Positions 5,152 through 43,540 of a stretch of DNA of 64,000 bases are shown piece by piece. The DNA is from Escherichia coli (lineage in GTDB: Bacteria > Pseudomonadota > Gammaproteobacteria > Enterobacterales > Enterobacteriaceae), in the NCBI RefSeq assembly GCF_013122565.1, contig NZ_CP053258.1; one strand, 5' to 3'. How positions within the stretch are numbered: the first letter of the stretch is position 1; every line of letters starts with the position of its first letter. A model generated the notes under the pieces. The model ran no database searches, was not told the origin of the DNA, and worked only from the letters and a program-made list of their open reading frames with translations. Made by a program: the position numbers and the translations under genes.

Positions 5152-8001
5152 TTGAAATACCTTGCTTCTTTTCGTACAACCCTGAAAGCCTCGCGCTACA
5201 TGTTCAGAGCATTGGCGTTAGTGCTCTGGCTGTTGATTGCTTTTTCATCCGTTTTTTACATCGTTAATGCGTTACATCAGCGAGAATCGGAAATTCGTCA
5301 GGAATTTAATCTGAGTTCCGATCAGGCTCAGCGCTTTATTCAACGCACCTCTGATGTGATGAAAGAGCTGAAGTACATCGCTGAAAATCGCTTATCGGTA
5401 GAAAACGGTGTGCTTTCCCCGCGTGGACGAGAAACGCAGGCAGATGTGCCTGCGTTTGAACCGCTGTTTGCCGACTCCGATTGTTCCGCAATGAGTAACA
5501 CCTGGCGAGGTTCTCTGGAGTCATTGGCGTGGTTTATGCGCTACTGGCGCGATAATTTTTCTGCGGCTTACGATCTCAACCGGGTATTTTTAATCGGCAG
5601 CGATAACCTCTGCATGGCCAATTTCGGTCTGCGTGATATGCCAGTGGAACGCGATACCGCGTTGAAAGCTTTGCATGAACGCATCAATAAATATCGAAAT
5701 GCACCACAAGATGATAGCGGCAGTAACCTCTACTGGATCAGCGAAGGTCCGCGCCCTGGCGTCGGGTATTTTTACGCGTTGACGCCAGTTTATCTGGCGA
5801 ACCGGTTGCAGGCGCTTTTGGGTGTCGAGCAAACCATCCGGATGGAGAACTTTTTCTTACCGGGTACGTTGCCGATGGGGGTTACCATTCTTGATGAAAA
5901 TGGTCATACCCTGATTTCGCTTACCGGACCAGAAAGCAAAATTAAGGGCGATCCTCGCTGGATGCAGGAACGCTCCTGGTTTGGCTATACGGAAGGGTTC
6001 CGGGAGCTGGTGCTGAAGAAAAATCTGCCACCCTCATCGCTAAGCATCGTGTATTCGGTGCCGGTTGATAAGGTGCTGGAACGCATTCGCATGTTGATCC
6101 TTAACGCAATTTTGCTGAATGTGCTTGCCGGAGCTGCATTGTTTACTCTCGCGCGGATGTACGAGCGACGTATTTTCATTCCGGCGGAAAGCGACGCCCT
6201 GCGACTGGAAGAACATGAGCAGTTCAATCGCAAGATTGTCGCCTCCGCGCCAGTGGGTATCTGCATTTTGCGTACCGCTGATGGCGTCAATATTTTAAGT
6301 AACGAACTGGCGCATACCTATCTCAATATGCTTACGCATGAGGACCGCCAACGACTGACGCAAATTATCTGTGGGCAGCAGGTCAATTTTGTTGATGTCC
6401 TGACCAGCAACAATACCAATCTGCAAATCAGCTTCGTCCATTCGCGCTATCGTAATGAAAACGTGGCCATTTGTGTGCTGGTGGATGTTTCTTCGCGCGT
6501 GAAGATGGAAGAGTCGTTGCAGGAGATGGCACAAGCAGCGGAACAGGCGAGCCAGTCAAAATCGATGTTCCTTGCCACCGTCAGTCATGAGCTGCGAACG
6601 CCGCTGTATGGCATTATCGGTAACCTGGATCTTTTGCAAACCAAAGAGTTACCGAAAGGCGTCGATCGTCTGGTGACGGCAATGAACAACTCTTCCAGCC
6701 TGTTGTTGAAAATTATCAGCGATATTCTCGATTTCTCGAAGATTGAATCGGAACAGTTGAAGATCGAACCGCGTGAGTTTTCACCGCGTGAAGTGATGAA
6801 CCACATCACCGCCAACTATTTACCGCTGGTGGTACGCAAGCAGTTAGGCTTGTACTGCTTTATTGAACCGGATGTGCCAGTGGCCTTAAATGGCGACCCG
6901 ATGCGTTTACAGCAGGTCATCTCCAACCTGTTGAGTAACGCCATAAAATTCACCGATACCGGCTGTATAGTTTTGCATGTCCGCGCTGATGGCGATTATC
7001 TCTCTATCCGTGTTCGCGATACCGGCGTGGGGATCCCGGCGAAAGAAGTGGTGCGCTTGTTTGATCCCTTCTTCCAGGTCGGAACGGGCGTACAGCGAAA
7101 CTTCCAGGGGACCGGTCTGGGTCTGGCGATTTGTGAAAAACTGATCAGCATGATGGACGGCGACATCTCGGTAGATTCAGAACCGGGAATGGGCAGCCAG
7201 TTTACCGTGCGTATTCCGTTGTACGGCGCTCAGTACCCGCAGAAAAAAGGCGTGGAAGGGTTGAGTGGTAAACGCTGCTGGCTGGCGGTCCGCAATGCGT
7301 CACTCTGTCAGTTCCTGGAAACCAGTTTGCAGCGCAGCGGCATCGTCGTAACAACATACGAAGGGCAGGAACCGACTCCCGAAGATGTGTTAATCACTGA
7401 CGAGGTAGTGAGTAAAAAATGGCAGGGCAGAGCGGTAGTGACCTTCTGTCGTCGACATATTGGTATTCCGCTGGAGAAAGCGCCAGGGGAGTGGGTACAC
7501 AGTGTGGCTGCTCCGCATGAGCTACCGGCATTGTTGGCGCGTATTTATTTGATCGAGATGGAGAGCGACGATCCTGCTAACGCTCTGCCGTCGACGGACA
7601 AAGCGGTCAGCGATAATGACGATATGATGTTTCTGGTCGTGGATGATCATCCGATTAACCGACGTCTGCTGGCAGATCAGTTGGGATCGTTGGGCTATCA
7701 ATGTAAAACCGCGAATGATGGCGTCGATGCGCTTAATGTACTTAGCAAGAATCATATTGATATCGTGCTTAGCGACGTCAACATGCCAAATATGGATGGT
7801 TACCGCTTGACGCAACGCATTCGTCAGTTGGGACTGACGTTGCCGGTAATCGGAGTAACTGCTAATGCGTTGGCTGAAGAGAAGCAGCGGTGTCTGGAGT
7901 CCGGTATGGACAGCTGCCTGTCGAAGCCGGTAACGCTGGATGTGATAAAACAGACGCTGACGGTATATGCCGAGAGGGTCAGGAAATCGCGGGAATCGTA
8001 G
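5152..8001 (+). CDS. rcsC: hybrid sensor histidine kinase RcsC (949 aa)
   Basis: 949-aa ORF starting MKYLASFRTTLK (TTG start), HisKA (SHELRTPL), HATPase and C-terminal receiver domain (VVDDHPINRRL). Confidence 0.95.
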   Translation: MKYLASFRTTLKASRYMFRALALVLWLLIAFSSVFYIVNALHQRESEIRQEFNLSSDQAQRFIQRTSDVMKELKYIAENRLSVENGVLSPRGRETQADVPAFEPLFADSDCSAMSNTWRGSLESLAWFMRYWRDNFSAAYDLNRVFLIGSDNLCMANFGLRDMPVERDTALKALHERINKYRNAPQDDSGSNLYWISEGPRPGVGYFYALTPVYLANRLQALLGVEQTIRMENFFLPGTLPMGVTILDENGHTLISLTGPESKIKGDPRWMQERSWFGYTEGFRELVLKKNLPPSSLSIVYSVPVDKVLERIRMLILNAILLNVLAGAALFTLARMYERRIFIPAESDALRLEEHEQFNRKIVASAPVGICILRTADGVNILSNELAHTYLNMLTHEDRQRLTQIICGQQVNFVDVLTSNNTNLQISFVHSRYRNENVAICVLVDVSSRVKMEESLQEMAQAAEQASQSKSMFLATVSHELRTPLYGIIGNLDLLQTKELPKGVDRLVTAMNNSSSLLLKIISDILDFSKIESEQLKIEPREFSPREVMNHITANYLPLVVRKQLGLYCFIEPDVPVALNGDPMRLQQVISNLLSNAIKFTDTGCIVLHVRADGDYLSIRVRDTGVGIPAKEVVRLFDPFFQVGTGVQRNFQGTGLGLAICEKLISMMDGDISVDSEPGMGSQFTVRIPLYGAQYPQKKGVEGLSGKRCWLAVRNASLCQFLETSLQRSGIVVTTYEGQEPTPEDVLITDEVVSKKWQGRAVVTFCRRHIGIPLEKAPGEWVHSVAAPHELPALLARIYLIEMESDDPANALPSTDKAVSDNDDMMFLVVDDHPINRRLLADQLGSLGYQCKTANDGVDALNVLSKNHIDIVLSDVNMPNMDGYRLTQRIRQLGLTLPVIGVTANALAEEKQRCLESGMDSCLSKPVTLDVIKQTLTVYAERVRKSRES

Positions 8002-8210
8002 GACGGATAAGGTGTTTATGCCGCATCTGGCATTCAGTGCAAATGCCAGATGCGACGCTGACGCGTCTTATCTGGCCTACTTTAATGTAATCTGTTGAAA
8101 TAATGGGAATCGTAGGACGGATAAGGCGTTTACGCCGCATCCGGCAATCGGTGCAAATGCCAGATAAGACACTAACTAGTCTTATCTGGCCTACATCTGG
8201 CCTACAGATG
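7988..8210. repeat. REP/BIME element: two ~100-bp direct copies each containing REP palindromes (gtaggacggataagg...gccgcatccggca, cagataagac...gtcttatctg)
   Basis: direct repeat 7990-8090 vs 8103-8200 read in sequence; convergent rcsC/rcsB 3' ends. Confidence 0.85.
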
Positions 8211-11862: not shown

Positions 11863-11956
11863 AAAAAAAAACCGGATGCGAGGCATCCGGTTGAAATAGG
11901 GGTAAACAGACATTCAGAAATGAATGACGGTAATAAATAAAGTTAATGATGATAGC
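11863..11956 (-). ncRNA. micF: MicF antisense sRNA
   Basis: reverse complement of 11863-11956 reads gctatcatcattaactttatttattaccgtcattcatttctgaatgtctgtttacccctatttcaaccggatgcctcgcatccggtttttttt; divergent from ompC; intrinsic terminator hairpin plus U-run. Confidence 0.95.
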
Positions 11957-12104
11957 GGGAGTTATTCTAGTTGCGAGTGAAGGTTTTGTTTTGACATTCA
12001 GTGCTGTCAAATACTTAAGAATAAGTTATTGATTTTAACCTTGAATTATTATTGCTTGATGTTAGGTGCTTATTTCGCCATTCCACAATAATCTTAAAAA
12101 GTTC

Positions 12105-19934: not shown

Positions 19935-20300
19935 ATGTGCCACATCCGGCATGGTATGCCGGATGTGGCGTATGCTGATAAGACGCGCCAGCGTCGCATC
20001 AGGCAACCGGCTTGGGTGTTAGATGTCGGATGCGGCGTAACCGACTTATTCGACCTACGGGGTGGAGCACTTCACAGCGGTGTAGGCCTGATAAGACGCG
20101 TCAGCGTCGCATCAGGCAACCGGCTCGGACGTTGGATGTCGGATGCGGCGTAACCGCCTTATCCGACCTACGGGGTGGAGCACTTCACAGCGGTGTAGGC
20201 CTGATAACACGCGTCAGCGTCGCATCAGGCAACCGGCTCGGGCGTTAGATGTCGGATGCGGCGTGACCGCTTTATCCAACCTACGGGGTGCCGCACTTCA
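19935..20300. repeat. tandem array (about 3 copies, 113-bp period) of a REP-containing unit (BIME-like)
   Basis: ataagacgcg[c/t]cagcgtcgcatcaggcaaccgg recurs at 19978, 20091 and 20204 (period 113 bp); palindromic ggatgtcggatgcggcgtaaccg units. Confidence 0.9.
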
Positions 20301-20307
20301 CGGCAGT

Positions 20308-20796
20308 TTAGCGAACTACTGCGTTGTCAATTTTCTCTTCCGCCTTCCAGACGCGGTACTTCACATCCACATTGTCTGGCGTATACACCACGATCGGCAG
20401 CTTGCTGTTGTAACGCAGCATTCCGGCATCGCCCAGATACGCGGTGACAAATTTCCTCTCTTTCTTGCCATCCGGGCAGGCCATCATCGTGGAAACCGGC
20501 GAGCTACCTTTATCAAAGACATAATAATCATAGCCCCAGCCTTCCAGCGTTTTGCTTTCCAGCTTCCCGCCGAGACGATGCAAATTACAATCGACTTCCA
20601 GCGTCTGACCGATTAACAGTTCTACTTTCAGGGTAGATTCATCTTCTTGCGGGGTTAACTGAATCACCTGACGCTTCATGCCTTTTTCAGCTTGTGGATA
20701 AGGCGCGATTTTTTCCAGTGGCTGGACGCTCTCTGCCGCCCAGGCGGAAGTGGTGGCGAAAGCGGCAAACAATACTGCAGGTAGAATGGTCTTCAT
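20308..20796 (-). CDS. eco: ecotin serine protease inhibitor, 162 aa
   Basis: [20 protein letters not shown] signal peptide; start trimmed from the 169-aa track ORF. Confidence 0.95.
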
Positions 20797-21055
20797 TTTT
20801 TTGCTTTCCTTCTTCATTTATAGGTTTTCACCGATGATGTCGCTGAAGGTTAACATATTCATCAGATTTATTAATTTGCTTTATGAATAACTTAAAGAAT
20901 ATTCAGACAATTTTACCTGCTCTTTTAGTGTTAAATTCTGATGAGAGAACAAACCAGCAGAAATATCTCTGGTGAATTAATCGCTATATAAATATGTTTA
21001 TAACCATTAGAAATGTGAGCAAAAGCCCGTTTTTGCCACGCTTCCCGCCACTCTT

Positions 21056-21090
21056 TTGATCCTGCTACAGGTTTTACCCCGATCGGGGTA
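21056..21090 (+). promoter_or_regulatory. napF promoter: FNR-like half-site region (ttgatcctgctaca) and perfect NarP/NarL 7-2-7 palindrome taccccgatcggggta (21075-21090)
   Basis: 16-bp perfect palindrome read directly; centres ~20 bp apart, consistent with the described napF FNR(-64.5)/NarP(-44.5) arrangement. Confidence 0.75.
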
Positions 21091-21203
21091 TGCACCTTTG
21101 ACACAACCTTTTATATCTTAGCGGCCATAAAAATAGCTTATTAGTTGTGTGGTTTATTTGCTCGCTCTCAATTTTCAGAGCGCGTTAATGATGGAAGGTC
21201 AAT

Positions 21204-21698
21204 GTGAAGATTGATGCATCCCGTCGGGGCATACTCACTGGTCGCTGGCGCAAAGCCAGTAACGGTATCCGTCCGCCCTGGTCCGGTGATGAATCTCATT
21301 TTCTGACCCATTGCACCCGCTGCGACGCCTGTATTAATGCTTGTGAAAACAACATTCTGCAACGCGGCGCGGGTGGCTATCCGAGCGTTAATTTCAAAAA
21401 TAACGAGTGCAGCTTCTGTTACGCCTGCGCGCAGGCTTGCCCCGAATCGCTATTTTCTCCGCGCCACACCAGGGCCTGGGATTTGCAGTTCACCATTGGG
21501 GACGCGTGCCTGGCGTATCAGTCAGTTGAATGCCGCCGCTGTCAGGATAGCTGTGAGCCAATGGCAATTATCTTTCGCCCGACGCTCTCCGGGATCTACC
21601 AGCCGCAACTTAATAGCCAACTTTGCAACGGATGTGGAGCATGTGCAGCCAGCTGTCCGGTATCAGCCATAACTGCGGAGTATCTCCATGCACACTAA
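21204..21698 (+). CDS. napF: ferredoxin-type protein NapF, 164 aa
   Basis: multiple CxxCxxCxxxCP clusters; first gene of nap operon. Confidence 0.95.
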   Translation: MKIDASRRGILTGRWRKASNGIRPPWSGDESHFLTHCTRCDACINACENNILQRGAGGYPSVNFKNNECSFCYACAQACPESLFSPRHTRAWDLQFTIGDACLAYQSVECRRCQDSCEPMAIIFRPTLSGIYQPQLNSQLCNGCGACAASCPVSAITAEYLHAH

Positions 21699-21951
21699 CT
21701 GGCAAGTTTGCAGCCTGGTCGTGCAGGCCAAAAGCGAACGAATTTCAGACATCAGCACCCAACTGAACGCCTTTCCCGGCTGTGAAGTTGCTGTCAGCGA
21801 CGCGCCAAGCGGTCAGTTGATTGTGGTGGTGGAAGCAGAAGACAGCGAAACGCTGATCCAAACCATTGAGTCAGTACGCAACGTAGAGGGCGTGCTGGCG
21901 GTGTCGCTGGTTTATCACCAGCAGGAAGAGCAAGGTGAGGAAACACCATGA
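21688..21951 (+). CDS. napD: NapA chaperone NapD, 87 aa
   Basis: 87-aa ORF overlapping napF and napA. Confidence 0.93.
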
Positions 21952-24434
21952 AACTCAGTCGTCGTAGCTTTATGAAAGCTAACGCCGTTGCGGCCGCTGC
22001 GGCGGCTGCCGGTCTCAGCGTGCCGGGCGTTGCCCGTGCCGTTGTTGGTCAGCAGGAAGCCATTAAATGGGATAAAGCGCCGTGCCGTTTCTGCGGTACT
22101 GGTTGCGGCGTTCTGGTCGGAACGCAGCAGGGGCGTGTGGTGGCCTGTCAGGGCGACCCGGATGCACCGGTTAACCGTGGCCTGAACTGCATTAAGGGCT
22201 ATTTCCTGCCCAAAATCATGTACGGTAAAGACCGTTTGACGCAGCCGCTGCTGCGTATGAAAAACGGTAAATATGACAAAGAGGGCGAATTTACCCCAAT
22301 CACCTGGGATCAAGCCTTCGATGTGATGGAAGAGAAATTCAAAACCGCCCTGAAAGAAAAAGGGCCGGAATCGATCGGTATGTTCGGTTCTGGTCAGTGG
22401 ACTATCTGGGAAGGTTATGCCGCGTCCAAGCTGTTCAAAGCGGGCTTCCGTTCGAACAACATCGACCCGAACGCGCGTCACTGTATGGCGTCGGCAGTAG
22501 TTGGCTTTATGCGTACCTTTGGTATGGATGAGCCGATGGGCTGCTATGACGACATCGAGCAGGCTGACGCGTTTGTGCTGTGGGGCGCAAACATGGCGGA
22601 GATGCACCCGATCCTCTGGTCGCGCATCACTAACCGTCGTCTTTCTAACCAGAACGTCACCGTGGCGGTGCTTTCTACCTACCAGCATCGTAGCTTCGAA
22701 CTGGCGGATAACGGCATCATCTTTACGCCACAGTCTGACCTGGTGATCCTGAACTACATCGCTAACTATATCATTCAAAACAATGCGATAAATCAGGACT
22801 TCTTCAGCAAACACGTTAACCTGCGTAAAGGTGCGACGGACATCGGCTACGGTTTACGTCCGACCCATCCGCTGGAAAAAGCAGCGAAGAATCCGGGTTC
22901 TGACGCCTCCGAACCGATGAGCTTTGAAGATTACAAAGCCTTCGTTGCTGAGTATACGCTGGAAAAAACCGCTGAAATGACCGGCGTGCCGAAAGACCAG
23001 TTAGAACAACTGGCGCAGCTGTACGCCGATCCGAACAAGAAAGTCATCTCCTACTGGACGATGGGCTTCAACCAGCACACGCGCGGCGTGTGGGCCAACA
23101 ACCTGGTCTACAACCTGCACCTGCTGACCGGCAAAATTTCCCAGCCGGGTTGCGGTCCGTTCTCCCTGACCGGGCAGCCTTCCGCGTGTGGTACTGCGCG
23201 TGAAGTGGGCACTTTTGCTCACCGTCTGCCTGCGGATATGGTGGTTACCAACGAAAAACACCGTGATATTTGCGAGAAGAAGTGGAATATCCCGAGCGGC
23301 ACCATTCCGGCGAAAATCGGTCTGCACGCGGTGGCACAAGACCGTGCGCTGAAAGACGGCAAACTGAATGTTTACTGGACCATGTGTACCAATAACATGC
23401 AGGCCGGACCGAACATTAATGAAGAGCGTATGCCGGGCTGGCGCGATCCGCGCAACTTTATCATCGTTTCCGATCCGTATCCGACAGTCAGTGCGCTGGC
23501 CGCCGACTTGATCCTGCCGACCGCAATGTGGGTAGAAAAAGAGGGTGCTTACGGTAACGCCGAACGCCGTACTCAGTTCTGGCGTCAGCAGGTACAGGCA
23601 CCGGGCGAAGCGAAATCGGATCTCTGGCAGTTAGTCCAGTTCTCCCGCCGCTTCAAAACCGAAGAAGTATGGCCGGAAGAGCTGCTGGCTAAGAAACCGG
23701 AACTGCGTGGCAAAACGCTGTACGAAGTTCTGTATGCCACCCCCGAAGTGAGCAAATTCCCGGTATCCGAACTGGCGGAAGATCAGCTGAACGATGAATC
23801 CCGCGAGCTGGGCTTCTATCTGCAAAAAGGGCTATTCGAAGAGTACGCATGGTTTGGTCGCGGTCACGGTCACGATCTGGCACCGTTCGATGACTACCAC
23901 AAAGCGCGCGGTCTGCGCTGGCCGGTGGTGAACGGTAAAGAAACGCAGTGGCGTTACAGCGAAGGTAACGACCCGTACGTGAAAGCGGGTGAAGGCTACA
24001 AGTTCTACGGTAAACCGGATGGCAAAGCGGTGATTTTCGCGCTGCCGTTCGAACCGGCGGCGGAAGCACCGGATGAAGAGTACGATCTGTGGCTCTCTAC
24101 CGGACGCGTTCTGGAGCACTGGCACACCGGCAGTATGACTCGCCGTGTGCCGGAACTGCACCGCGCCTTCCCGGAAGCGGTCCTGTTTATTCACCCGCTG
24201 GATGCGAAAGCGCGCGATCTACGCCGTGGCGACAAAGTGAAAGTGGTTTCTCGCCGTGGTGAAGTGATCTCGATTGTCGAAACGCGCGGTCGTAACCGTC
24301 CGCCGCAGGGCCTGGTGTACATGCCGTTCTTCGACGCCGCACAGCTGGTTAACAAACTGACGCTGGATGCGACCGATCCGCTCTCGAAAGAGACGGATTT
24401 CAAGAAGTGCGCGGTCAAACTGGAGAAGGTGTAA
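21948..24434 (+). CDS. napA: periplasmic nitrate reductase catalytic subunit NapA, 828 aa
   Basis: Tat signal SRRSFMK, N-terminal 4Fe-4S Cys motif CRFCGTGCG, molybdopterin oxidoreductase length. Confidence 0.97.
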
Positions 24435-24440
24435 GCCATT

Positions 24441-25136
24441 ATGTCCCGGTCAGCGAAACCTCAAAATGGTCGCCGCCGCTTTCTGCGCGATGTTGTTCGC
24501 ACAGCAGGCGGGCTGGCTGCCGTGGGTGTGGCGCTGGGGTTACAACAGCAAACCGCACGCGCATCTGGCGTGCGGTTGCGCCCGCCCGGAGCCATAAACG
24601 AGAACGCCTTTGCCAGTGCCTGTGTGCGTTGCGGTCAGTGTGTTCAGGCTTGCCCTTACGACACCTTAAAACTGGCGACGCTGGCTTCTGGCCTGTCGGC
24701 GGGCACGCCATATTTTGTCGCACGGGATATTCCTTGCGAAATGTGTGAGGACATTCCGTGCGCCAAAGTGTGCCCGAGCGGTGCGCTGGATCGTGAGATT
24801 GAATCGATCGACGACGCGCGGATGGGGCTGGCGGTACTGGTGGACCAGGAAAACTGTCTCAACTTTCAGGGGCTGCGCTGCGATGTTTGTTATCGCGAAT
24901 GCCCGAAAATTGATGAGGCCATCACCCTGGAGCTGGAGCGCAACACGCGTACCGGTAAGCACGCCCGCTTTCTGCCGACGGTTCACAGCGACGCCTGTAC
25001 TGGTTGCGGTAAGTGCGAAAAAGTGTGCGTGCTGGAACAACCGGCAATCAAGGTGTTACCGCTGTCACTGGCGAAAGGGGAGTTAGGTCACCATTACCGC
25101 TTCGGCTGGCTGGAGGGGAACAATGGCAAATCGTAA
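24441..25136 (+). CDS. napG: ferredoxin-type protein NapG, 231 aa
   Basis: Tat-like signal (RRRFLRD), four Cys clusters. Confidence 0.95.
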
Positions 25137-25986
25137 ACGTGACGCCGGGCGCGAGGCGCTGGAGAAAAAAGGCTGGTGGCGCAGTCACCGTTGGCTGGTG
25201 TTACGTCGCCTTTGTCAGTTCTTCGTGCTGGGGATGTTTTTGAGCGGTCCGTGGTTTGGTGTGTGGATCTTGCACGGCAACTACAGCAGTAGCCTGTTAT
25301 TCGACACCGTTCCGCTGACCGATCCGCTGATGACGCTGCAAAGTCTTGCCAGTGGTCATCTGCCTGCCACGGTGGCGTTGACCGGTGCGGTGATTATCAC
25401 CGTGCTCTACGCCCTGGCAGGAAAGCGATTATTTTGCAGCTGGGTCTGCCCGCTGAACCCGATTACCGACTTAGCGAACTGGTTACGCAGGCGCTTTGAC
25501 CTCAATCAGTCTGCGACGATCCCTCGCCACATTCGCTACGTGCTGTTGGTGGTCATTCTGGTGGGATCAGCCTTAACTGGCACGCTCATCTGGGAATGGA
25601 TCAACCCCGTTTCCCTGATGGGGCGTAGCCTGGTAATGGGCTTCGGCAGCGGCGCGCTGCTTATTCTCGCGCTGTTTTTATTTGATCTACTGGTCGTTGA
25701 ACACGGCTGGTGCGGGCACATTTGTCCGGTTGGCGCGCTGTATGGCGTGCTGGGTAGCAAAGGTGTGATTACCGTTGCGGCCACCGATCGGCAGAAATGT
25801 AACCGCTGTATGGATTGTTTTCATGTTTGCCCGGAACCGCATGTGCTACGTGCCCCGGTGCTGGATGAACAAAGCCCGGTGCAGGTCACCAGCCGCGATT
25901 GCATGACGTGCGGTCGCTGCGTGGATGTCTGTTCTGAGGATGTATTTACAATAACTACACGATGGAGTTCGGGAGCGAAATCATGA
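25123..25986 (+). CDS. napH: membrane ferredoxin-type protein NapH, 287 aa
   Basis: TM segments plus C-terminal Cys clusters. Confidence 0.95.
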
Positions 25987-26441: not shown

Positions 26442-27044
26442 ATGGGAAATTCTGACCGTAAGCCTGGTCTGATTAAGCGCCTGTGGAAATGGTGGCGTAC
26501 CCCCAGCCGTCTGGCGCTGGGGACGCTGCTGTTGATCGGCTTTGTTGGCGGCATCGTCTTCTGGGGCGGCTTTAACACCGGGATGGAAAAAGCCAATACC
26601 GAAGAGTTCTGCATTAGCTGCCACGAAATGCGTAACACGGTGTATCAGGAATACATGGATTCCGTGCACTACAACAACCGTAGCGGCGTTCGTGCGACCT
26701 GTCCGGATTGTCACGTTCCGCACGAGTTTGTGCCGAAAATGATACGCAAGCTCAAAGCAAGTAAAGAGCTGTATGGTAAAATTTTTGGCGTTATTGACAC
26801 GCCGCAGAAATTCGAAGCTCATCGCCTGACTATGGCACAGAATGAGTGGCGGCGAATGAAGGACAACAACTCGCAGGAGTGCCGTAACTGTCACAACTTC
26901 GAGTTTATGGATTTAACCGCCCAGAAAGGTGTTGCCGCGAAGATGCATGACCAGGCGGTGAAAGATGGGCAAACCTGTATTGATTGCCATAAAGGGATAG
27001 CGCACAAGCTGCCCGATATGCGTGAAGTCGAGCCAGGTTTTTAA
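26442..27044 (+). CDS. napC: membrane-anchored tetraheme cytochrome c quinol dehydrogenase NapC, 200 aa
   Basis: N-terminal TM helix, four CxxCH (CISCH, CPDCH, CRNCH, CIDCH). Confidence 0.96.
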   Translation: MGNSDRKPGLIKRLWKWWRTPSRLALGTLLLIGFVGGIVFWGGFNTGMEKANTEEFCISCHEMRNTVYQEYMDSVHYNNRSGVRATCPDCHVPHEFVPKMIRKLKASKELYGKIFGVIDTPQKFEAHRLTMAQNEWRRMKDNNSQECRNCHNFEFMDLTAQKGVAAKMHDQAVKDGQTCIDCHKGIAHKLPDMREVEPGF

Positions 27045-29800: not shown

Positions 29801-31740
29801 TGCCGGAAATTGGTAACGGACTGCTGTGCCTGGCGCTGGGAATTGCGCTGCTGCTGTCCGTGTATCCGCTATGGGGCGTGGCGCGCGGAGATGCGCGCAT
29901 GATGGCGTCTTCCCGCTTGTTTGCCTGGCTGCTGTTTATGTCTGTAGCTGGCGCATTTCTGGTGCTGGTCAATGCTTTCGTGGTCAACGACTTTACCGTC
30001 ACCTATGTTGCCAGCAACTCCAATACCCAGCTTCCGGTGTGGTATCGCGTGGCGGCTACCTGGGGCGCGCATGAAGGCTCGCTACTGCTGTGGGTGCTGC
30101 TGATGAGCGGCTGGACCTTTGCGGTGGCGATTTTTAGTCAGCGTATTCCGCTGGATATTGTGGCCCGTGTACTGGCGATAATGGGGATGGTCAGCGTCGG
30201 CTTTTTGCTGTTCATTCTCTTTACCTCTAACCCGTTTTCACGCACGTTGCCGAACTTCCCGATTGAAGGGCGCGATCTTAACCCGCTGTTACAGGATCCG
30301 GGGCTGATCTTCCATCCGCCTCTGCTCTATATGGGGTACGTGGGTTTCTCGGTGGCGTTTGCTTTTGCCATTGCTTCTTTGCTGAGCGGGCGTCTGGACA
30401 GCACTTATGCGCGTTTTACTCGTCCGTGGACGCTGGCGGCGTGGATTTTCCTGACGCTCGGCATTGTGCTCGGTTCCGCATGGGCCTATTACGAACTCGG
30501 CTGGGGTGGCTGGTGGTTCTGGGATCCGGTAGAAAACGCCTCGTTTATGCCGTGGTTGGTGGGTACTGCGCTGATGCACTCACTGGCGGTCACTGAACAA
30601 CGCGCCAGCTTCAAAGCGTGGACATTACTGCTGGCAATCAGTGCCTTTTCGCTGTGTCTGTTGGGGACTTTCCTGGTGCGTTCCGGCGTGCTGGTATCGG
30701 TACACGCGTTTGCGTCTGATCCGGCGCGCGGTATGTTTATCCTCGCCTTTATGGTGCTGGTGATTGGCGGTTCGCTGCTGCTGTTTGCCGCGCGTGGACA
30801 CAAAGTTCGCTCACGCGTAAACAATGCGCTGTGGTCGCGGGAATCTTTGCTGTTAGCGAACAACGTTTTGCTGGTCGCCGCAATGCTGGTGGTGTTGCTG
30901 GGGACGCTGCTGCCGCTGGTGCACAAGCAACTGGGACTGGGCAGTATTTCGATTGGCGAACCGTTCTTCAACACCATGTTTACCTGGCTGATGGTGCCGT
31001 TTGCTCTACTGCTGGGTGTCGGTCCTCTGGTGCGCTGGGGGCGCGATCGCCCACGTAAAATCCGCAATTTATTGATTATCGCCTTCATCTCAACGCTGGT
31101 GCTGTCGCTGCTGCTGCCGTGGCTGTTCGAAAGCAAAGTTGTGGCGATGACGGTGCTCGGCCTGGCAATGGCCTGCTGGATTGCGGTGCTGGCAATTGCG
31201 GAAGCTGCGCTGCGTATTTCACGTGGCACGAAAACCACCTTCAGTTATTGGGGAATGGTGGCGGCTCACCTGGGGCTGGCAGTGACAATTGTTGGTATTG
31301 CCTTTAGCCAGAACTATAGCGTTGAGCGTGATGTGCGCATGAAGTCCGGCGATAGTGTCGATATTCATGAATATCGCTTCACCTTCCGTGATGTCAAAGA
31401 GGTGACTGGCCCGAACTGGCGTGGCGGTGTGGCGACTATCGGCGTAACGCGAGAGGGTAAACCAGAAACGGTGCTGTATGCGGAAAAACGTTATTACAAC
31501 ACTGCCGGGTCGATGATGACCGAAGCGGCGATTGACGGCGGCATCACGCGTGACCTGTACGCGGCCCTCGGTGAAGAGCTGGAAAACGGCGCGTGGGCCG
31601 TGCGTCTTTACTACAAACCGTTTGTTCGCTGGATTTGGGCGGGCGGGCTGATGATGGCGTTGGGCGGACTGCTGTGTCTGTTTGATCCTCGCTATCGTAA
31701 GCGCGTGAGCCCGCAAAAAACTGCGCCGGAGGCTGTATGA
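29797..31740 (+). CDS. ccmF: cytochrome c heme lyase subunit CcmF, 647 aa
   Basis: 647-aa polytopic ORF with W-rich motif ([12 protein letters not shown]). Confidence 0.95.
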
Positions 31741-33343: not shown

Positions 33344-33380
33344 AAAGTGGCCCGATGGTGATTCCATCGGGCTATTTTTA
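33344..33380. terminator. bidirectional intrinsic terminator between ccmH and narP (gcccgatgg...ccatcgggc flanked by A-run/T-run)
   Basis: hairpin with flanking aaaaa / ttttt. Confidence 0.8.
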
Positions 33381-34025
33381 TTGTGCCCCGCGTTGTTGCA
33401 GGAACAGAATGGTGGCCGCCACGCGTGAGCGGACATTGAGTTTACGCAGCAGATTGCGAATATGTACTTTTACTGTCTGCTCGGAAATATTCAACACCGA
33501 GGCAATTTGTTTATTTGACAGCCCCTGTGCCAGCTCGTGCAGAACATCCAGCTCGCGCTCCGTCAGCACGCTGAAGGGATCTTCTTCCGCGCCAAACATT
33601 TCACGTTCACGCAAGTACTGATTGACGCGTTCGCTAAAGACTTTGCTGCCTTTCGCTCCGGCACGAATCGCTTCCAGCAACACTTCCGGGTCGCTGTCTT
33701 TCAACAGATAACCGTCTGCGCCTGCGTCTATCAGCGCAAAGACATCGCTGGAGGCATCTGATACGGTCAGGATAATAATTTGCGCGGTAACGCCATCCCT
33801 GCGCAAGGCATTGAGGGTATCCAGGCCACTCATACCTTTCATATTGAGATCCAGCAAGATCACGTCGATATCCAGTCTATTCGCCAGATCGATAGCACTC
33901 GCGCCGTCGCCTGCTTCGGCGACCACTTCAAAGCCAGGATCAAGCTCCAGTAACTGACGAACACCGCGTCGCATAAGTGGATGATCATCCACAATCATCA
34001 CCTGAAAAGGCGTTGCTTCAGGCAT
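33378..34025 (-). CDS. narP: nitrate/nitrite response regulator NarP, 215 aa
   Basis: MPEATPFQVMIVDDHPLMRRG receiver domain, LuxR HTH C-terminus; start trimmed from track ORF. Confidence 0.95.
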   Translation of the reverse strand: MPEATPFQVMIVDDHPLMRRGVRQLLELDPGFEVVAEAGDGASAIDLANRLDIDVILLDLNMKGMSGLDTLNALRRDGVTAQIIILTVSDASSDVFALIDAGADGYLLKDSDPEVLLEAIRAGAKGSKVFSERVNQYLREREMFGAEEDPFSVLTERELDVLHELAQGLSNKQIASVLNISEQTVKVHIRNLLRKLNVRSRVAATILFLQQRGAQ

Positions 34026-34344
34026 AGTAGTCTCCTGAGGTTTTATTAGAATCATTATGTTTGAGCGTAGCGTTGGTAACGCTACCAGGCGCGTGAATGT
34101 TACCCCATTTTATGTATGGACATGTAGTGAAAACTACAACCTTGTCGTTCGCTTCGGCATCATTTTCATTATAAAGACGGAATTTTGCATCAGCTTCTCA
34201 TCAAGAAAAACACCTAAAAAATCAATCACAATACTTGTGCATTTCTTTAAACAGTTTTTAAAAACTGACTCCGGGTATGGAGCTATGGGTATTTTCCGTA
34301 CCCAATGCTTTTAACAGCAATTAATTTCATAGGATGAAAGCTCA

Positions 34345-40385: not shown

Positions 40386-40765
40386 ATCTCCAACGCGAAT
40401 GTTTCTTTTCGGAGAAACAGTTGCGGGATAATCACAATTCTTGTCAATCAGTTAGTGAGATGACTTGCTGATTGACCTTTCATTCGAAAATGTTTTCTCT
40501 GTTATTATACTTAGTGTTACTGAAAATATTATTCTCTTATCCCCTTTATTCGATAATAAATCGGTCTGGTCACTATTTCCGCCGTTTTTTGTGAGCTGTA
40601 ACACTGGAAAAATCATTCTGTTTAATTATATTGAGTTTACTTGGCGTTATATGTTGTTATTTGCTTTGACTATATAAAATGCAAATGTATTCTTAATGTC
40701 AATATTATTGTCGTTATGTTTGACTCATTATATTAATCGTATGAATAGTTTTAAGGATTCACCGC

Positions 40766-41338
40766 ATGGAGCAAGAAAATCCTGAAGATAGAAAGTGTTG
40801 TCGACCGAAAAAAACGTTCTCTTTAACCAGAAAATTACTGGTATGTTTTATCTTTACCCTCATTGTATTCAGTGGTTGTTTATTTGTCGTTATGAACACG
40901 GTCATTCATAACACCAGCACTGACAGCTTTTGCCTGGGTTGTCATGAAATGAAAGACAACATCCTTACCGAGAGTTTCAAAAAATCCATTCATGGCAGTA
41001 ATCGTACTGGCGTGAAAGTCGCTTGTGCCGATTGCCATATTCCTGATGAATTTGTCCCTAAGATGATCAGAAAAGCCCACGCCGTTAAAGAGGTTTGGGG
41101 GCATATGACAGGCGTAATTGATACGGCCGATAAATTCGATGCACATCGTGGCGAAATGGCAAAAGCGGAATGGGCAAGAATGAAAGCAAACAATTCGCAG
41201 GAATGCAGAGACTGCCACGATATTTCTAAATTACAGAAAAAATTTATGGCGCCGTTCCATGAGGCTTCTCTTAAAGAAGGGAAAACATGCATTGATTGTC
41301 ATGCCGGCATTGCACATAAATTACCAGCAGTTCATTAG
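40766..41338 (+). CDS. NapC/NirT/CymA-family membrane-anchored tetraheme cytochrome c (putative quinol dehydrogenase), 190 aa; NapC paralog
   Basis: N-terminal TM helix (LLVCFIFTLIVFSGCLFVV), four CxxCH (CLGCH, CADCH, CRDCH, CIDCH); shares blocks VPKMIRK, NNSQECR-CH, TCIDCH-GIAHKLP with the napC in this window. Confidence 0.85.
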   Translation: MEQENPEDRKCCRPKKTFSLTRKLLVCFIFTLIVFSGCLFVVMNTVIHNTSTDSFCLGCHEMKDNILTESFKKSIHGSNRTGVKVACADCHIPDEFVPKMIRKAHAVKEVWGHMTGVIDTADKFDAHRGEMAKAEWARMKANNSQECRDCHDISKLQKKFMAPFHEASLKEGKTCIDCHAGIAHKLPAVH

Positions 41339-41431
41339 TCATTAATACATGAATGTCATGTCTGTCTGGTTTCAAATAAAAACAAGAAGGGTTTCATGTT
41401 GATTTAAGTTTTTATGTAAAAGGACCATGTT

Positions 41432-43072
41432 ATGAGGAAACTAAAAAGGGGATTCTTATTGGCTGGGGTATTAACGGCACTTTCTCTAAGCGCTTATGCT
41501 GACAGAAATATGAATAAGATCCCGCATATCAATCTGTCGAATCCATCCGTCGAACCAGTTAGTGAGAGAATAATCCAAACAGATATTGTTGTTATTGGCG
41601 GTGGGCTTTCTGGCATGTCCGCAGGGTTGACTGCAGTACAGGGCGGAGCCAAAGTTGTTATTTTTGAAAAACTACCAAGCCTTGGAGGGGCAGGCGTTTA
41701 TCCTGAAGGCAGTTTAGGCATTGGCACCCTTATGCAAAAAAAAGAGGGGAAAGGTGCCACGCTGAATCAAGCCTTTGGTAAGGCGATCGATTTCCATCAC
41801 TGGCGAGCCAATGCTAGTGCATTGCACGCATTAATGAAAAACTCAGGCGAAACCATTGATTGGGTTGCCAGTAATGGCGTTGAGTTTACGACCTTAAAAA
41901 CCACCATTTATCCTCAGTCAGATTCATTATGGACCTGGCATATGTATAAGCATAATGGTGCATCTGTTACTAAAAGCTTTTACAAGAAGATCCTTGATGG
42001 AGGTGGGCAAATCTACACCGAAACTCCTGTTAAGAAGATTCTTCGCGACAAACAAAGCGGTGATGTCGTTGGCGTCGAAGCGGTTAATAGCGTAACAGGG
42101 GAAAAAATCATTGCCTATGGTAAGGGTGTGATTGTGGCGACCGGTGGTTTTGCCAACAACCGTGACATGATTGAAAAATACATCACCGATGTGAATCAGA
42201 AAAACATGGTGCCGGTCAAACTACGTGGCCCCCTGATTGATGGACGCGAAGGCGATGGTATCAAAATGGGGCAAGACATTGGCGCTGATACTGCCGGGAT
42301 GCAAACCATTGCTGGCAATAGCCCATATGTCGATCAAGACCCTCCTATCCGTCAGTTTAATGGCGCGGATTACCAAAAACAGGCCAGAACGTCATTAAGC
42401 CAGCCATTCCTGTGGATTAACCGACAAGGCGAGCGTTTCTTTGATGAGTCACTCGGTTCCAGTTTTACCCTCGTTTATAACGCTATCACCATGAATGGCG
42501 GAGTCATGTATTCTGTCTGGGATGATGCAATGCGCCAGAAGATGGTTAACGAAGGGCCGGTTACACCGTTTAACGCCATCGTGTTGCCTGGGCAGCCGAT
42601 GAAGGCGCTGGATCAGGCGATCGAAATCGGCATGAAAGAAGGGTGGTTATTTAAAGGTGAAACGTTGGACGATCTGGCAAAACAGATCAATGTTCCTGCA
42701 GACAATCTGAAAGCGACGATTGCGAAAGTAAACAAGTATACGGATGAAGGTTTCGATCCTGACTGGGGGCGCAAGAAAGAGCATCTGTTTAAATTTCAGG
42801 ATAAAGGACCGTATTACGCCGTGAAAGGTATTCGGGCTTATTTCCTGACGCTGGGTGGTTTGAAAATGAACAGCGATCTGCAGGTCTACGATACCAATGA
42901 GAAGATTATCCCAGGTCTGTATGTTGTCGGGCAGGATATGGGCGGTCTGTATGACAGCTCCTATGATTTGGTACTTGAAGGATCGGCTTCTGGCTTTGCG
43001 TTGACGTCGGGACGTATGGCAGCGAAACATATTATAAGCACCAGAGTGCAGGCACAGGGAGGAGGCAAATGA
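41432..43072 (+). CDS. exported FAD-dependent flavoprotein of the fumarate-reductase/succinate-dehydrogenase flavoprotein (FAD_binding_2) type, 546 aa; substrate unknown
   Basis: N-terminal signal peptide MRKLKRGFLLAGVLTALSLSAYA; dinucleotide fold DIVVIGGGLSGMSAGLTA...EKLPSLGGAG; C-terminal GLYVVGQDMGG; no CxxCH. Confidence 0.8.
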   Translation: MRKLKRGFLLAGVLTALSLSAYADRNMNKIPHINLSNPSVEPVSERIIQTDIVVIGGGLSGMSAGLTAVQGGAKVVIFEKLPSLGGAGVYPEGSLGIGTLMQKKEGKGATLNQAFGKAIDFHHWRANASALHALMKNSGETIDWVASNGVEFTTLKTTIYPQSDSLWTWHMYKHNGASVTKSFYKKILDGGGQIYTETPVKKILRDKQSGDVVGVEAVNSVTGEKIIAYGKGVIVATGGFANNRDMIEKYITDVNQKNMVPVKLRGPLIDGREGDGIKMGQDIGADTAGMQTIAGNSPYVDQDPPIRQFNGADYQKQARTSLSQPFLWINRQGERFFDESLGSSFTLVYNAITMNGGVMYSVWDDAMRQKMVNEGPVTPFNAIVLPGQPMKALDQAIEIGMKEGWLFKGETLDDLAKQINVPADNLKATIAKVNKYTDEGFDPDWGRKKEHLFKFQDKGPYYAVKGIRAYFLTLGGLKMNSDLQVYDTNEKIIPGLYVVGQDMGGLYDSSYDLVLEGSASGFALTSGRMAAKHIISTRVQAQGGGK

Positions 43073-43479
43073 GTAAGCTATTGAAGAACATTGTCACAAT
43101 CATTCTTGCTGGCGTAATGTGCACCGTTATCGGTATGGTTTCTGCCAGTGCACAAGAGATTGTCGGCATGAAAATGCACAAGACCATTGGTCTGGAATGT
43201 AATAACTGCCATGTTGATGATGTTAAAGCCAACAAGAATATGACGCCAACGTGCGTTAGCTGCCATGCGCCTGGTGAGCGTTATTATCATGGTAAGAAGG
43301 ATTCAGAAGGTAACTCAGTGTTAAAAGAGTATCCGGAGTCGGGTAAAACACGAGTTGCGTCTTTCCATGACTCTCATGGCGGGGAAATTCGCTGTACGGT
43401 ATGCCATACGTCACATGAGAAGGAACCACAGCCACTCTATTGCAACAACTGCCATCAGTTTGATGTGAAGATTAAGTAG
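43069..43479 (+). CDS. small periplasmic tetraheme cytochrome c, 136 aa
   Basis: signal peptide, four CxxCH (CNNCH, CVSCH, CTVCH, CNNCH) in ~110 mature residues; ATGA overlap with upstream flavoprotein gene. Confidence 0.85.
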   Translation: MSKLLKNIVTIILAGVMCTVIGMVSASAQEIVGMKMHKTIGLECNNCHVDDVKANKNMTPTCVSCHAPGERYYHGKKDSEGNSVLKEYPESGKTRVASFHDSHGGEIRCTVCHTSHEKEPQPLYCNNCHQFDVKIK

Positions 43480-43501
43480 TGAAGGTATTTGTCAGTCGCT
43501 G

Positions 43502-43540
43502 AAAAAGAAAACGGCCCGTAAAGGCCGTTTTCTTTTGTTC
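43502..43540. terminator. intrinsic terminator (aaacggcccgtaaaggccgttt + T-run) between the island operon and convergent rplY
   Basis: GC hairpin flanked by gaaaaagaaa and ttcttttg. Confidence 0.85.

Follow-up and report, generated by a model that had tools for sequence, protein, structure and literature searches.

The napF control region in a divergent lineage labelled Escherichia coli very probably keeps the FNR and NarP/NarL organisation of K-12

The stretch of DNA analysed here (64,000 nucleotides, hereafter the window) carries the napFDAGHBC operon, the divergent upstream gene eco (ecotin) and, following napC, the ccm genes (Table 1). From rcsC to yejA the window is fully syntenic with annotated E. 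coli genomes, including eco, yojO, napFDAGHBC, ccmA-H, narP and yejO. The napF reading frame matched the NCBIfam model TIGR00402 with 248 bits, and its product is 100% identical to K-12 NapF (164 of 164 residues). About 12 kb downstream of the palindrome described below, and in the same window, lies narP, the gene for the regulator that targets this palindrome.

Among 5,426 complete E. coli genomes, even the nearest shares only about 98.3% identity with the window. It also contains a 3.1-kb insertion between yejK and rplY (40386-43532) that encodes a NapC/NirT tetrahaem cytochrome c (190 aa), a 546-aa FAD_binding_2 flavoprotein and a 136-aa cytochrome c3-type protein, that is, a predicted periplasmic flavocytochrome reductase module. 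A megablast search gave no match to the insertion in any of the 5,426 complete E. coli genomes, and near-identical proteins were found in cryptic Escherichia clades and in E. albertii. Because of the limited identity to the nearest genome and the absence of this cluster from the complete genomes, we regard the source as a divergent lineage that is labelled E. coli.

Table 1. Genes and putative control elements around the napF promoter (window coordinates; positions with a minus sign are relative to the predicted P1 start)
Feature	Coordinates	Strand	Remarks
eco (ecotin)	20308-20817	-	divergent upstream gene
ModE-like site ATCGCTATATAAATATGTTTATAACCAT	20980-21007	.	centre 20993.5, equal to -133.5
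Conserved block GAAATGTGAGCAAAAGC, candidate Crp site	21010-21026	.	contains TGTGA half-site; 22-mer centre near -105.5
FNR site TTGATCCTGCTACA	21056-21069	.	putative centre -64.5; K-12 homology
NarP/NarL 7-2-7 operator	21075-21090	.	heptamer TACCCCG, spacer AT, heptamer CGGGGTA
Presumed upstream P2 -10 hexamer	21111-21116	+	3-nt offset from P1 hexamer
Putative P1 -10 hexamer TATCTT	21114-21119	+	-13 to -8; geometry from 7-2-7 centre at -44.5
Predicted P1 transcription start (A)	21127	+	21082.5 + 44.5
napF	21204-21698	+	GTG start at 21204; first gene of napFDAGHBC
napD	21688-21951	+	NCBIfam equivalog match
napA	21948-24434	+	NCBIfam equivalog match
napG	24441-25136		napFDAGHBC operon
napH	25123-25986		napFDAGHBC operon
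napB	to 26432		napFDAGHBC operon
napC	26442-27044		napFDAGHBC operon
ccmA-H	to 33343		after napC
narP	33378-34025	-	NCBIfam NF007708 NarP equivalog, 457 bits; annotated in a syntenic E. coli genome

A previous inspection of the letters alone (the sequence-only reading) had pointed to a perfect 16-bp palindrome upstream of napF. The palindrome TACCCCGATCGGGGTA is indeed present (Table 1), with 8-nt arms and a gap of 0, 114-129 bp upstream of the napF GTG. Its left heptamer occupies 21075-21081, the AT spacer 21082-21083 and the right heptamer 21084-21090. The same reading had described an exact 7-2-7 heptamer pair of the NarL/NarP type. This holds for the arrangement, since two inverted TACYYMT heptamers (consensus letters as in PMC7419079) stand at exactly 2-bp spacing, but not for the heptamers themselves, each of which matches the consensus at 6/7 positions and departs from it at position 7. 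Upstream, TTGAT (21056-21060) opens the FNR-type 14-mer TTGATCCTGCTACA, which ends 5 bp before the palindrome. The start of TTGAT lies 19 bp before the palindrome, and the two centres (21062.5 and 21082.5) are exactly 20 bp apart, in agreement with the distance of about 20 bp noted earlier. We take this 20-bp centre spacing to equal the -64.5/-44.5 geometry of K-12 napF. Together, both sites cover 114-148 bp upstream of napF, and their context in the window reads CTCTTTTGATCCTGCTACAGGTTTTACCCCGATCGGGGTATGCACC. With napF as the first gene of napFDAGHBC directly downstream, the sites anchor the operon start as had been suggested.

Palindromy alone is weak evidence. Perfect palindromes of 16 bp or more occur four times in the window versus 1.3 expected, and 74% of simulated windows (first-order Markov) contained at least one. 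The other perfect palindromes are CAGTTTTTAAAAACTG at 34252-34267 in the narP-yejO intergenic region, GTGGATGATCATCCAC at 33977-33992 within the 5' end of narP and, within ccmF, the 18-bp CGATATTCATGAATATCG at 31359-31376. At up to two mismatches, the 16-mer upstream of napF is present once in the 64-kb window, with 0.01 occurrences expected. When the 64-kb window was scanned with the 7-2-7 consensus TACYYMT-NN-AKRRGTA, matches with up to three mismatches occurred at chance level (33 versus 28 expected). Two matches had up to two mismatches, and the napF palindrome was the sole symmetric one. The only other match of this quality, TACTTAAGAATAAGTT at 12012-12027, lies in the micF-ompC intergenic region beside MicF (11864-11957, minus strand); an FNR ChIP study has a peak within ompC/micF (PMC3688515).

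The FNR site is weak as a motif. Compared with TTGAT-N4-ATCAA, TTGATCCTGCTACA scores 7/10, with a perfect left half and a weak right half (CTACA, 2/5), and the window holds 330 matches of 7/10 or better versus 247 expected. Because matches of this quality abound in the window, the FNR site is not callable from sequence alone. The earlier description of an FNR-like site is therefore upheld by K-12 homology but not by the motif, for which the consensus scan with up to three mismatches was uninformative. That is, the call of a putative FNR site rests on homology and not on motif strength. An in vivo FNR ChIP-seq peak has been found at napF/yojO in K-12, where the site sequence is identical, and the PWM score of the napF FNR site was low in that study (PMC3688515). 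This site would escape a consensus scan, and both sites can serve as a positive control for motif scanning. Since the motif matches are weak compared with chance, the case for the two sites is one of context and conservation, not of motif statistics. Their position, their identity to K-12 and their cross-genus conservation with fixed spacing put both sites above chance. Another FNR-like candidate, TTGATTGCCATAAA at 26980-26999, departs from the FNR consensus at 1 position and lies 64 bp upstream of ccmA, where it overlaps a weak 7-2-7-like match. We rejected it as probably a coding coincidence of the napC codons for the haem motif C-I-D-C-H.

Within E. coli, the 45 bp that cover both sites (21050-21094) are identical to K-12 and are found in 4,964 of the 5,421 complete genomes. 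A single base within 21064-21094 is different in about 456 genomes; the three of them that were sampled are all O157, and the heptamer of EDL933 (O157:H7) reads TACCTCG, which is still inside TACYYMT. Immediately downstream, the window carries nine substitutions relative to K-12 within the 67 bp from 21095 to 21161, covering core promoter and leader. This corresponds to about 8 substitutions per 100 bp versus a background of about 1.7. Relative to K-12, no other 100-bp bin is as divergent as 21100-21199, which is also among the top seven bins of 50 kb relative to the nearest genome. Among the changes are those from TAATAT to TTATAT in the presumed P2 -10 hexamer, from T to C at -1 and from ATG to GTG at the yojO start, while the P1 hexamer and both activator sites are free of substitutions. 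Over 161 bp (21050-21210), 2 of the 5,421 complete E. coli genomes are at least 95% identical to the window; MFDS1006657 has most of the hotspot variants and 24A16CRGN010 some of them. Judged by this pattern, the hotspot looks like a recombined allele.

For K-12 napF, Stewart et al. reportedly showed in 2003 that FNR at -64.5 and phospho-NarP at -44.5 activate a promoter P1. About 3 nt upstream of its start they reportedly found the start of a further promoter, P2, which NarP/NarL inhibit and for which no function is known. With the palindrome centred at -44.5, P1 would start at A21127 and the FNR centre would fall at -64.5. The leader would then comprise 77 nt (21127-21203). With its centre 44.5 bp upstream of the predicted start, the 7-2-7 occupies an activating position in a nitrate/nitrite-regulated operon. 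This start is consistent with the published location of the K-12 napF 7-2-7 at -40 to -49 (PMC4549865) and with a regulated -85 to +19 napF fusion, which keeps FNR/NarP/NarL control (PMC9262595). The sequence-only reading would have been contradicted by a transcription start upstream of the two sites; in K-12, the sites lie upstream of the start. The putative P1 -10 hexamer is the same as in K-12 and lies inside the invariant block ATATCTTA.

The presumed P2 hexamer is not retained. From its 3-nt offset relative to TATCTT we infer that TAATAT of K-12 is the P2 -10 hexamer, and in the window it reads TTATAT (A21112T). This substitution takes away the A at the second position of the presumed hexamer, and an A at this position of a -10 hexamer is essential. 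Among the sequences compared, A21112T is common only to strain MFDS1006657. T21126C corresponds to position -1 of the predicted P1. The rare allele should keep P1 regulation, and P2 is probably weakened; given the substitutions in the -10 region and at -1, promoter strength and start-site choice could differ from K-12. This allele amounts to a natural experiment on the dispensability of the enigmatic P2.

A promoter scan found no consensus sigma-70 promoter in the intergenic region, which would be expected if the promoter depends on activators. The perfect TTGACA at 21098-21103 was rejected as a -35 element, since no more than 7-10 bp separate it from the -10 hexamers and a -10 at a distance of 16-18 bp is lacking. 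ACACA within this TTGACA region is invariant across genera. Rfam gave no match in the napF promoter or leader, and the 89-nt fold from the predicted start into napF (21127-21215) was not better than those of shuffled sequences (z = -1.4).

Further upstream, a ModE-like dyad falls at -133.5 from the predicted P1 start, and the promoter geometry is internally consistent in this respect: McNicholas and Gunsalus reportedly placed the ModE site of napF at -133.5 in 2002. The arms of the dyad are ATCGCTATATA...TTATAACCAT in the window and CGTTATATAA...TATATAAC in Citrobacter, where the conserved form is CG(C/T)TATATAA...TATATAAC. At position 20996, within the site, K-12 has A, whereas G is found in the window and in most E. 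coli. The block GAAATGTGAGCAAAAGC is kept from Escherichia to Citrobacter with a mean column identity of 0.86; it is a candidate Crp site, an assignment that follows what Stewart et al. reportedly described in 2009. Activation of nap by ModE is described in a review (PMC8139620).

For the comparison across genera, the napF upstream region was aligned from ten sequences: the window, K-12, two divergent genomes labelled E. coli, E. albertii, four Citrobacter and Leclercia. The 7-2-7 was the best-conserved intergenic block, with 13 of 16 columns invariant and a mean identity of 0.94. Mean identity was 0.92 for both the FNR block and the -10 region, versus 0.58-0.78 for the flanking spacers and the leader. 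TTGATC was invariant in all ten sequences, and its start always preceded the palindrome's TACC by 19 bp. ATATCTTA was likewise invariant in 10/10, and the stretches that connect the FNR site, the 7-2-7 and this block had no indels in any of the ten. In two Citrobacter genomes the palindrome reads TACCCCAATTGGGGTA, a symmetric G>A/C>T double change by which palindromy is kept.

These results very probably identify the element as the published napF operon control region, organised as in E. coli K-12. The palindrome and the neighbouring FNR site are already known and ordinary, not novel, and the sequence-only reading was right to call its match to this region confirmatory. K-12 napF (aeg-46.5) and the window share the 45 bp over both sites, the 20-bp spacing, TATCTT and the flanking genes, and also the upstream region save scattered SNPs; they differ by the nine substitutions in 21095-21161. 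The napF gene is among four with a reported 7-2-7, the type of site bound by NarL and NarP dimers and, for NarP, exclusively so (PMC2718512). It requires NarP co-activation (PMC3688515), and NarP ChIP has been reported at the Salmonella napF promoter (PMC12421874).

The C-terminal domain of NarL was co-crystallised with TACCCCTAAAGGGGTA (PMC4549865), an engineered site (narG -89/-89) that has the same outer TACCCC / GGGGTA (12 positions) and the same 2-bp spacing. The four central positions differ: the window has G for T at heptamer position 7, plus the complement, and AT for AA as spacer, which together create the central GATC of the window. The ogt promoter (NarL II) likewise has a single 7-2-7 at -44.5, just upstream of the -35 region, and a TATCTT -10 hexamer (PMC7419079), and yeaR has a single 7-2-7 at -38 to -47 (PMC4549865). 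However, ogt and yeaR are activated by NarL alone, without FNR, whereas at napF NarP co-activates with FNR and NarL is mainly a competitor. With conventional FNR class I/II promoters, napF shares the TTGAT half-site, anaerobic activation and in vivo FNR occupancy. In contrast to these, its right half-site is weak and, according to the K-12 literature, a second activator is needed between FNR and polymerase. The putative FNR position of -64.5 is unusual compared with -41.5 or -61.5.

Combining the literature on the identical K-12 sequence (for binding, activation and competition) with the present analysis (for sequence, conservation and gene identities), the element very probably works as follows. 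During anaerobiosis, an FNR dimer would bind TTGATCCTGCTACA, centred at -64.5. In the presence of nitrate or nitrite, NarQ (and NarX) would phosphorylate NarP, and a NarP dimer would occupy the inverted TACCCCG/CGGGGTA with its centre at -44.5, abutting the -35 region. FNR and NarP would then recruit RNA polymerase to P1, which has the -10 TATCTT, no usable -35 and a predicted start near 21127, and P1 would drive napFDAGHBC with read-through into ccm. At high nitrate, abundant phospho-NarL would take the same palindrome and displace NarP; Nap production would therefore peak when nitrate is low. From further upstream, ModE (-133.5) would contribute, and probably Crp as well. For K-12, activation of napF by FNR and phospho-NarP and competition of phospho-NarL for the same site have been described (PMC9262595).

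Other explanations of the dyad have to be weighed against control by FNR and NarP/NarL. The RefSeq annotation of yojO (20931-21095, minus strand) spans both the FNR and the NarP site, and the palindrome might be kept as coding sequence for the YojO N-terminus M-H-T-P-I-G-V on the minus strand. But the yojO frame is stopped at codon 15-20 in E. albertii, the four Citrobacter, Leclercia and the two divergent genomes labelled E. coli. As the frame is broken outside E. coli while the palindrome persists, the conservation is regulatory, not coding. The start codon of yojO is GTG in the window, not ATG, the frame had no NCBIfam family match, and the symmetric double substitution of Citrobacter keeps the dyad, a constraint at the level of the DNA and its recognition, not of a peptide. 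Thus, yojO is probably not a conserved protein-coding gene, and the probability that its coding function explains the palindrome is negligible. We attach practically no credence, either, to a chance palindrome, or a hairpin or terminator, without a regulatory role. Perfect palindromes of 16 bp or more are by no means rare, as the count given above illustrates, but this one is unique at up to two mismatches, recurs across genera with fixed spacing and is identical to an experimentally characterised operator. The terminator scan found neither a T-tract nor a terminator-like site in the intergenic region, and the palindrome, being located between divergent genes and upstream of the start, would have nothing to terminate. 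IscR, ModE and BasR are also listed as regulators of the K-12 napF region (PMC3688515 supplement), and IscR represses nap aerobically (PMC8139620), so the dyad could primarily be the target of another regulator (of the GerE/LuxR family, or IscR) with NarP/NarL secondary. This is extremely unlikely: at its outer 12 positions the palindrome matches the high-affinity site of the NarL co-crystal exactly, napF belongs to the four classical 7-2-7 genes (PMC2718512), and activation of napF fusions has repeatedly been found to depend on NarP.

A Dam-methylation-sensitive, epigenetic switch would view the palindrome mainly as a CGATCG/GATC element that tunes the binding of FNR and NarP/NarL. The two GATCs in question, one in the FNR half-site (21058-21061) and one at the exact centre of the palindrome (21081-21084, also a PvuI site, CGATCG), are the only ones in the 386-bp eco-napF intergenic region, and TTGATC is invariant in the ten species or strains. 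In Haemophilus influenzae, where methylation control has been proposed for FNR-regulon promoters, GATC motifs in front of nap overlap predicted FNR sites, and the FNR regulon is repressed by Dam (PMC12345214). However, methylation was unchanged in an H. influenzae fnr mutant (PMC12345214). The central GATC is lost in 4 of the 10 orthologous promoters (AATT, GATT, CATT) while the heptamers are kept, TTGATC is accounted for by the FNR half-site itself, and a literature search yielded nothing on control of E. coli napF by Dam. We consider such a switch very unlikely. It is likewise improbable, if a little less so, that GATC methylation or hemimethylation might modulate FNR and NarP/NarL binding and so couple nap expression to replication or give cell-to-cell heterogeneity and, separately, that the rare allele may be a natural P2-null variant.

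As the known napF control region, the element has little discovery value. It shows the classical FNR/NarP/NarL architecture of napF preserved to the base in a divergent E. coli lineage, and at unchanged spacing as far as Citrobacter and Leclercia. In practice it serves as an annotation anchor for the operon start. Upstream of the locus, between mqo and eco, the window contains a 113-bp tandem repeat at 19975-20301 (2.9 copies, 92% matches), and two further copies were found downstream of rcsC (8001-8191). These repeats match the Rfam family naRNA4 (RF02564, REP-type elements), and K-12 has more copies at the mqo-eco site than the window.
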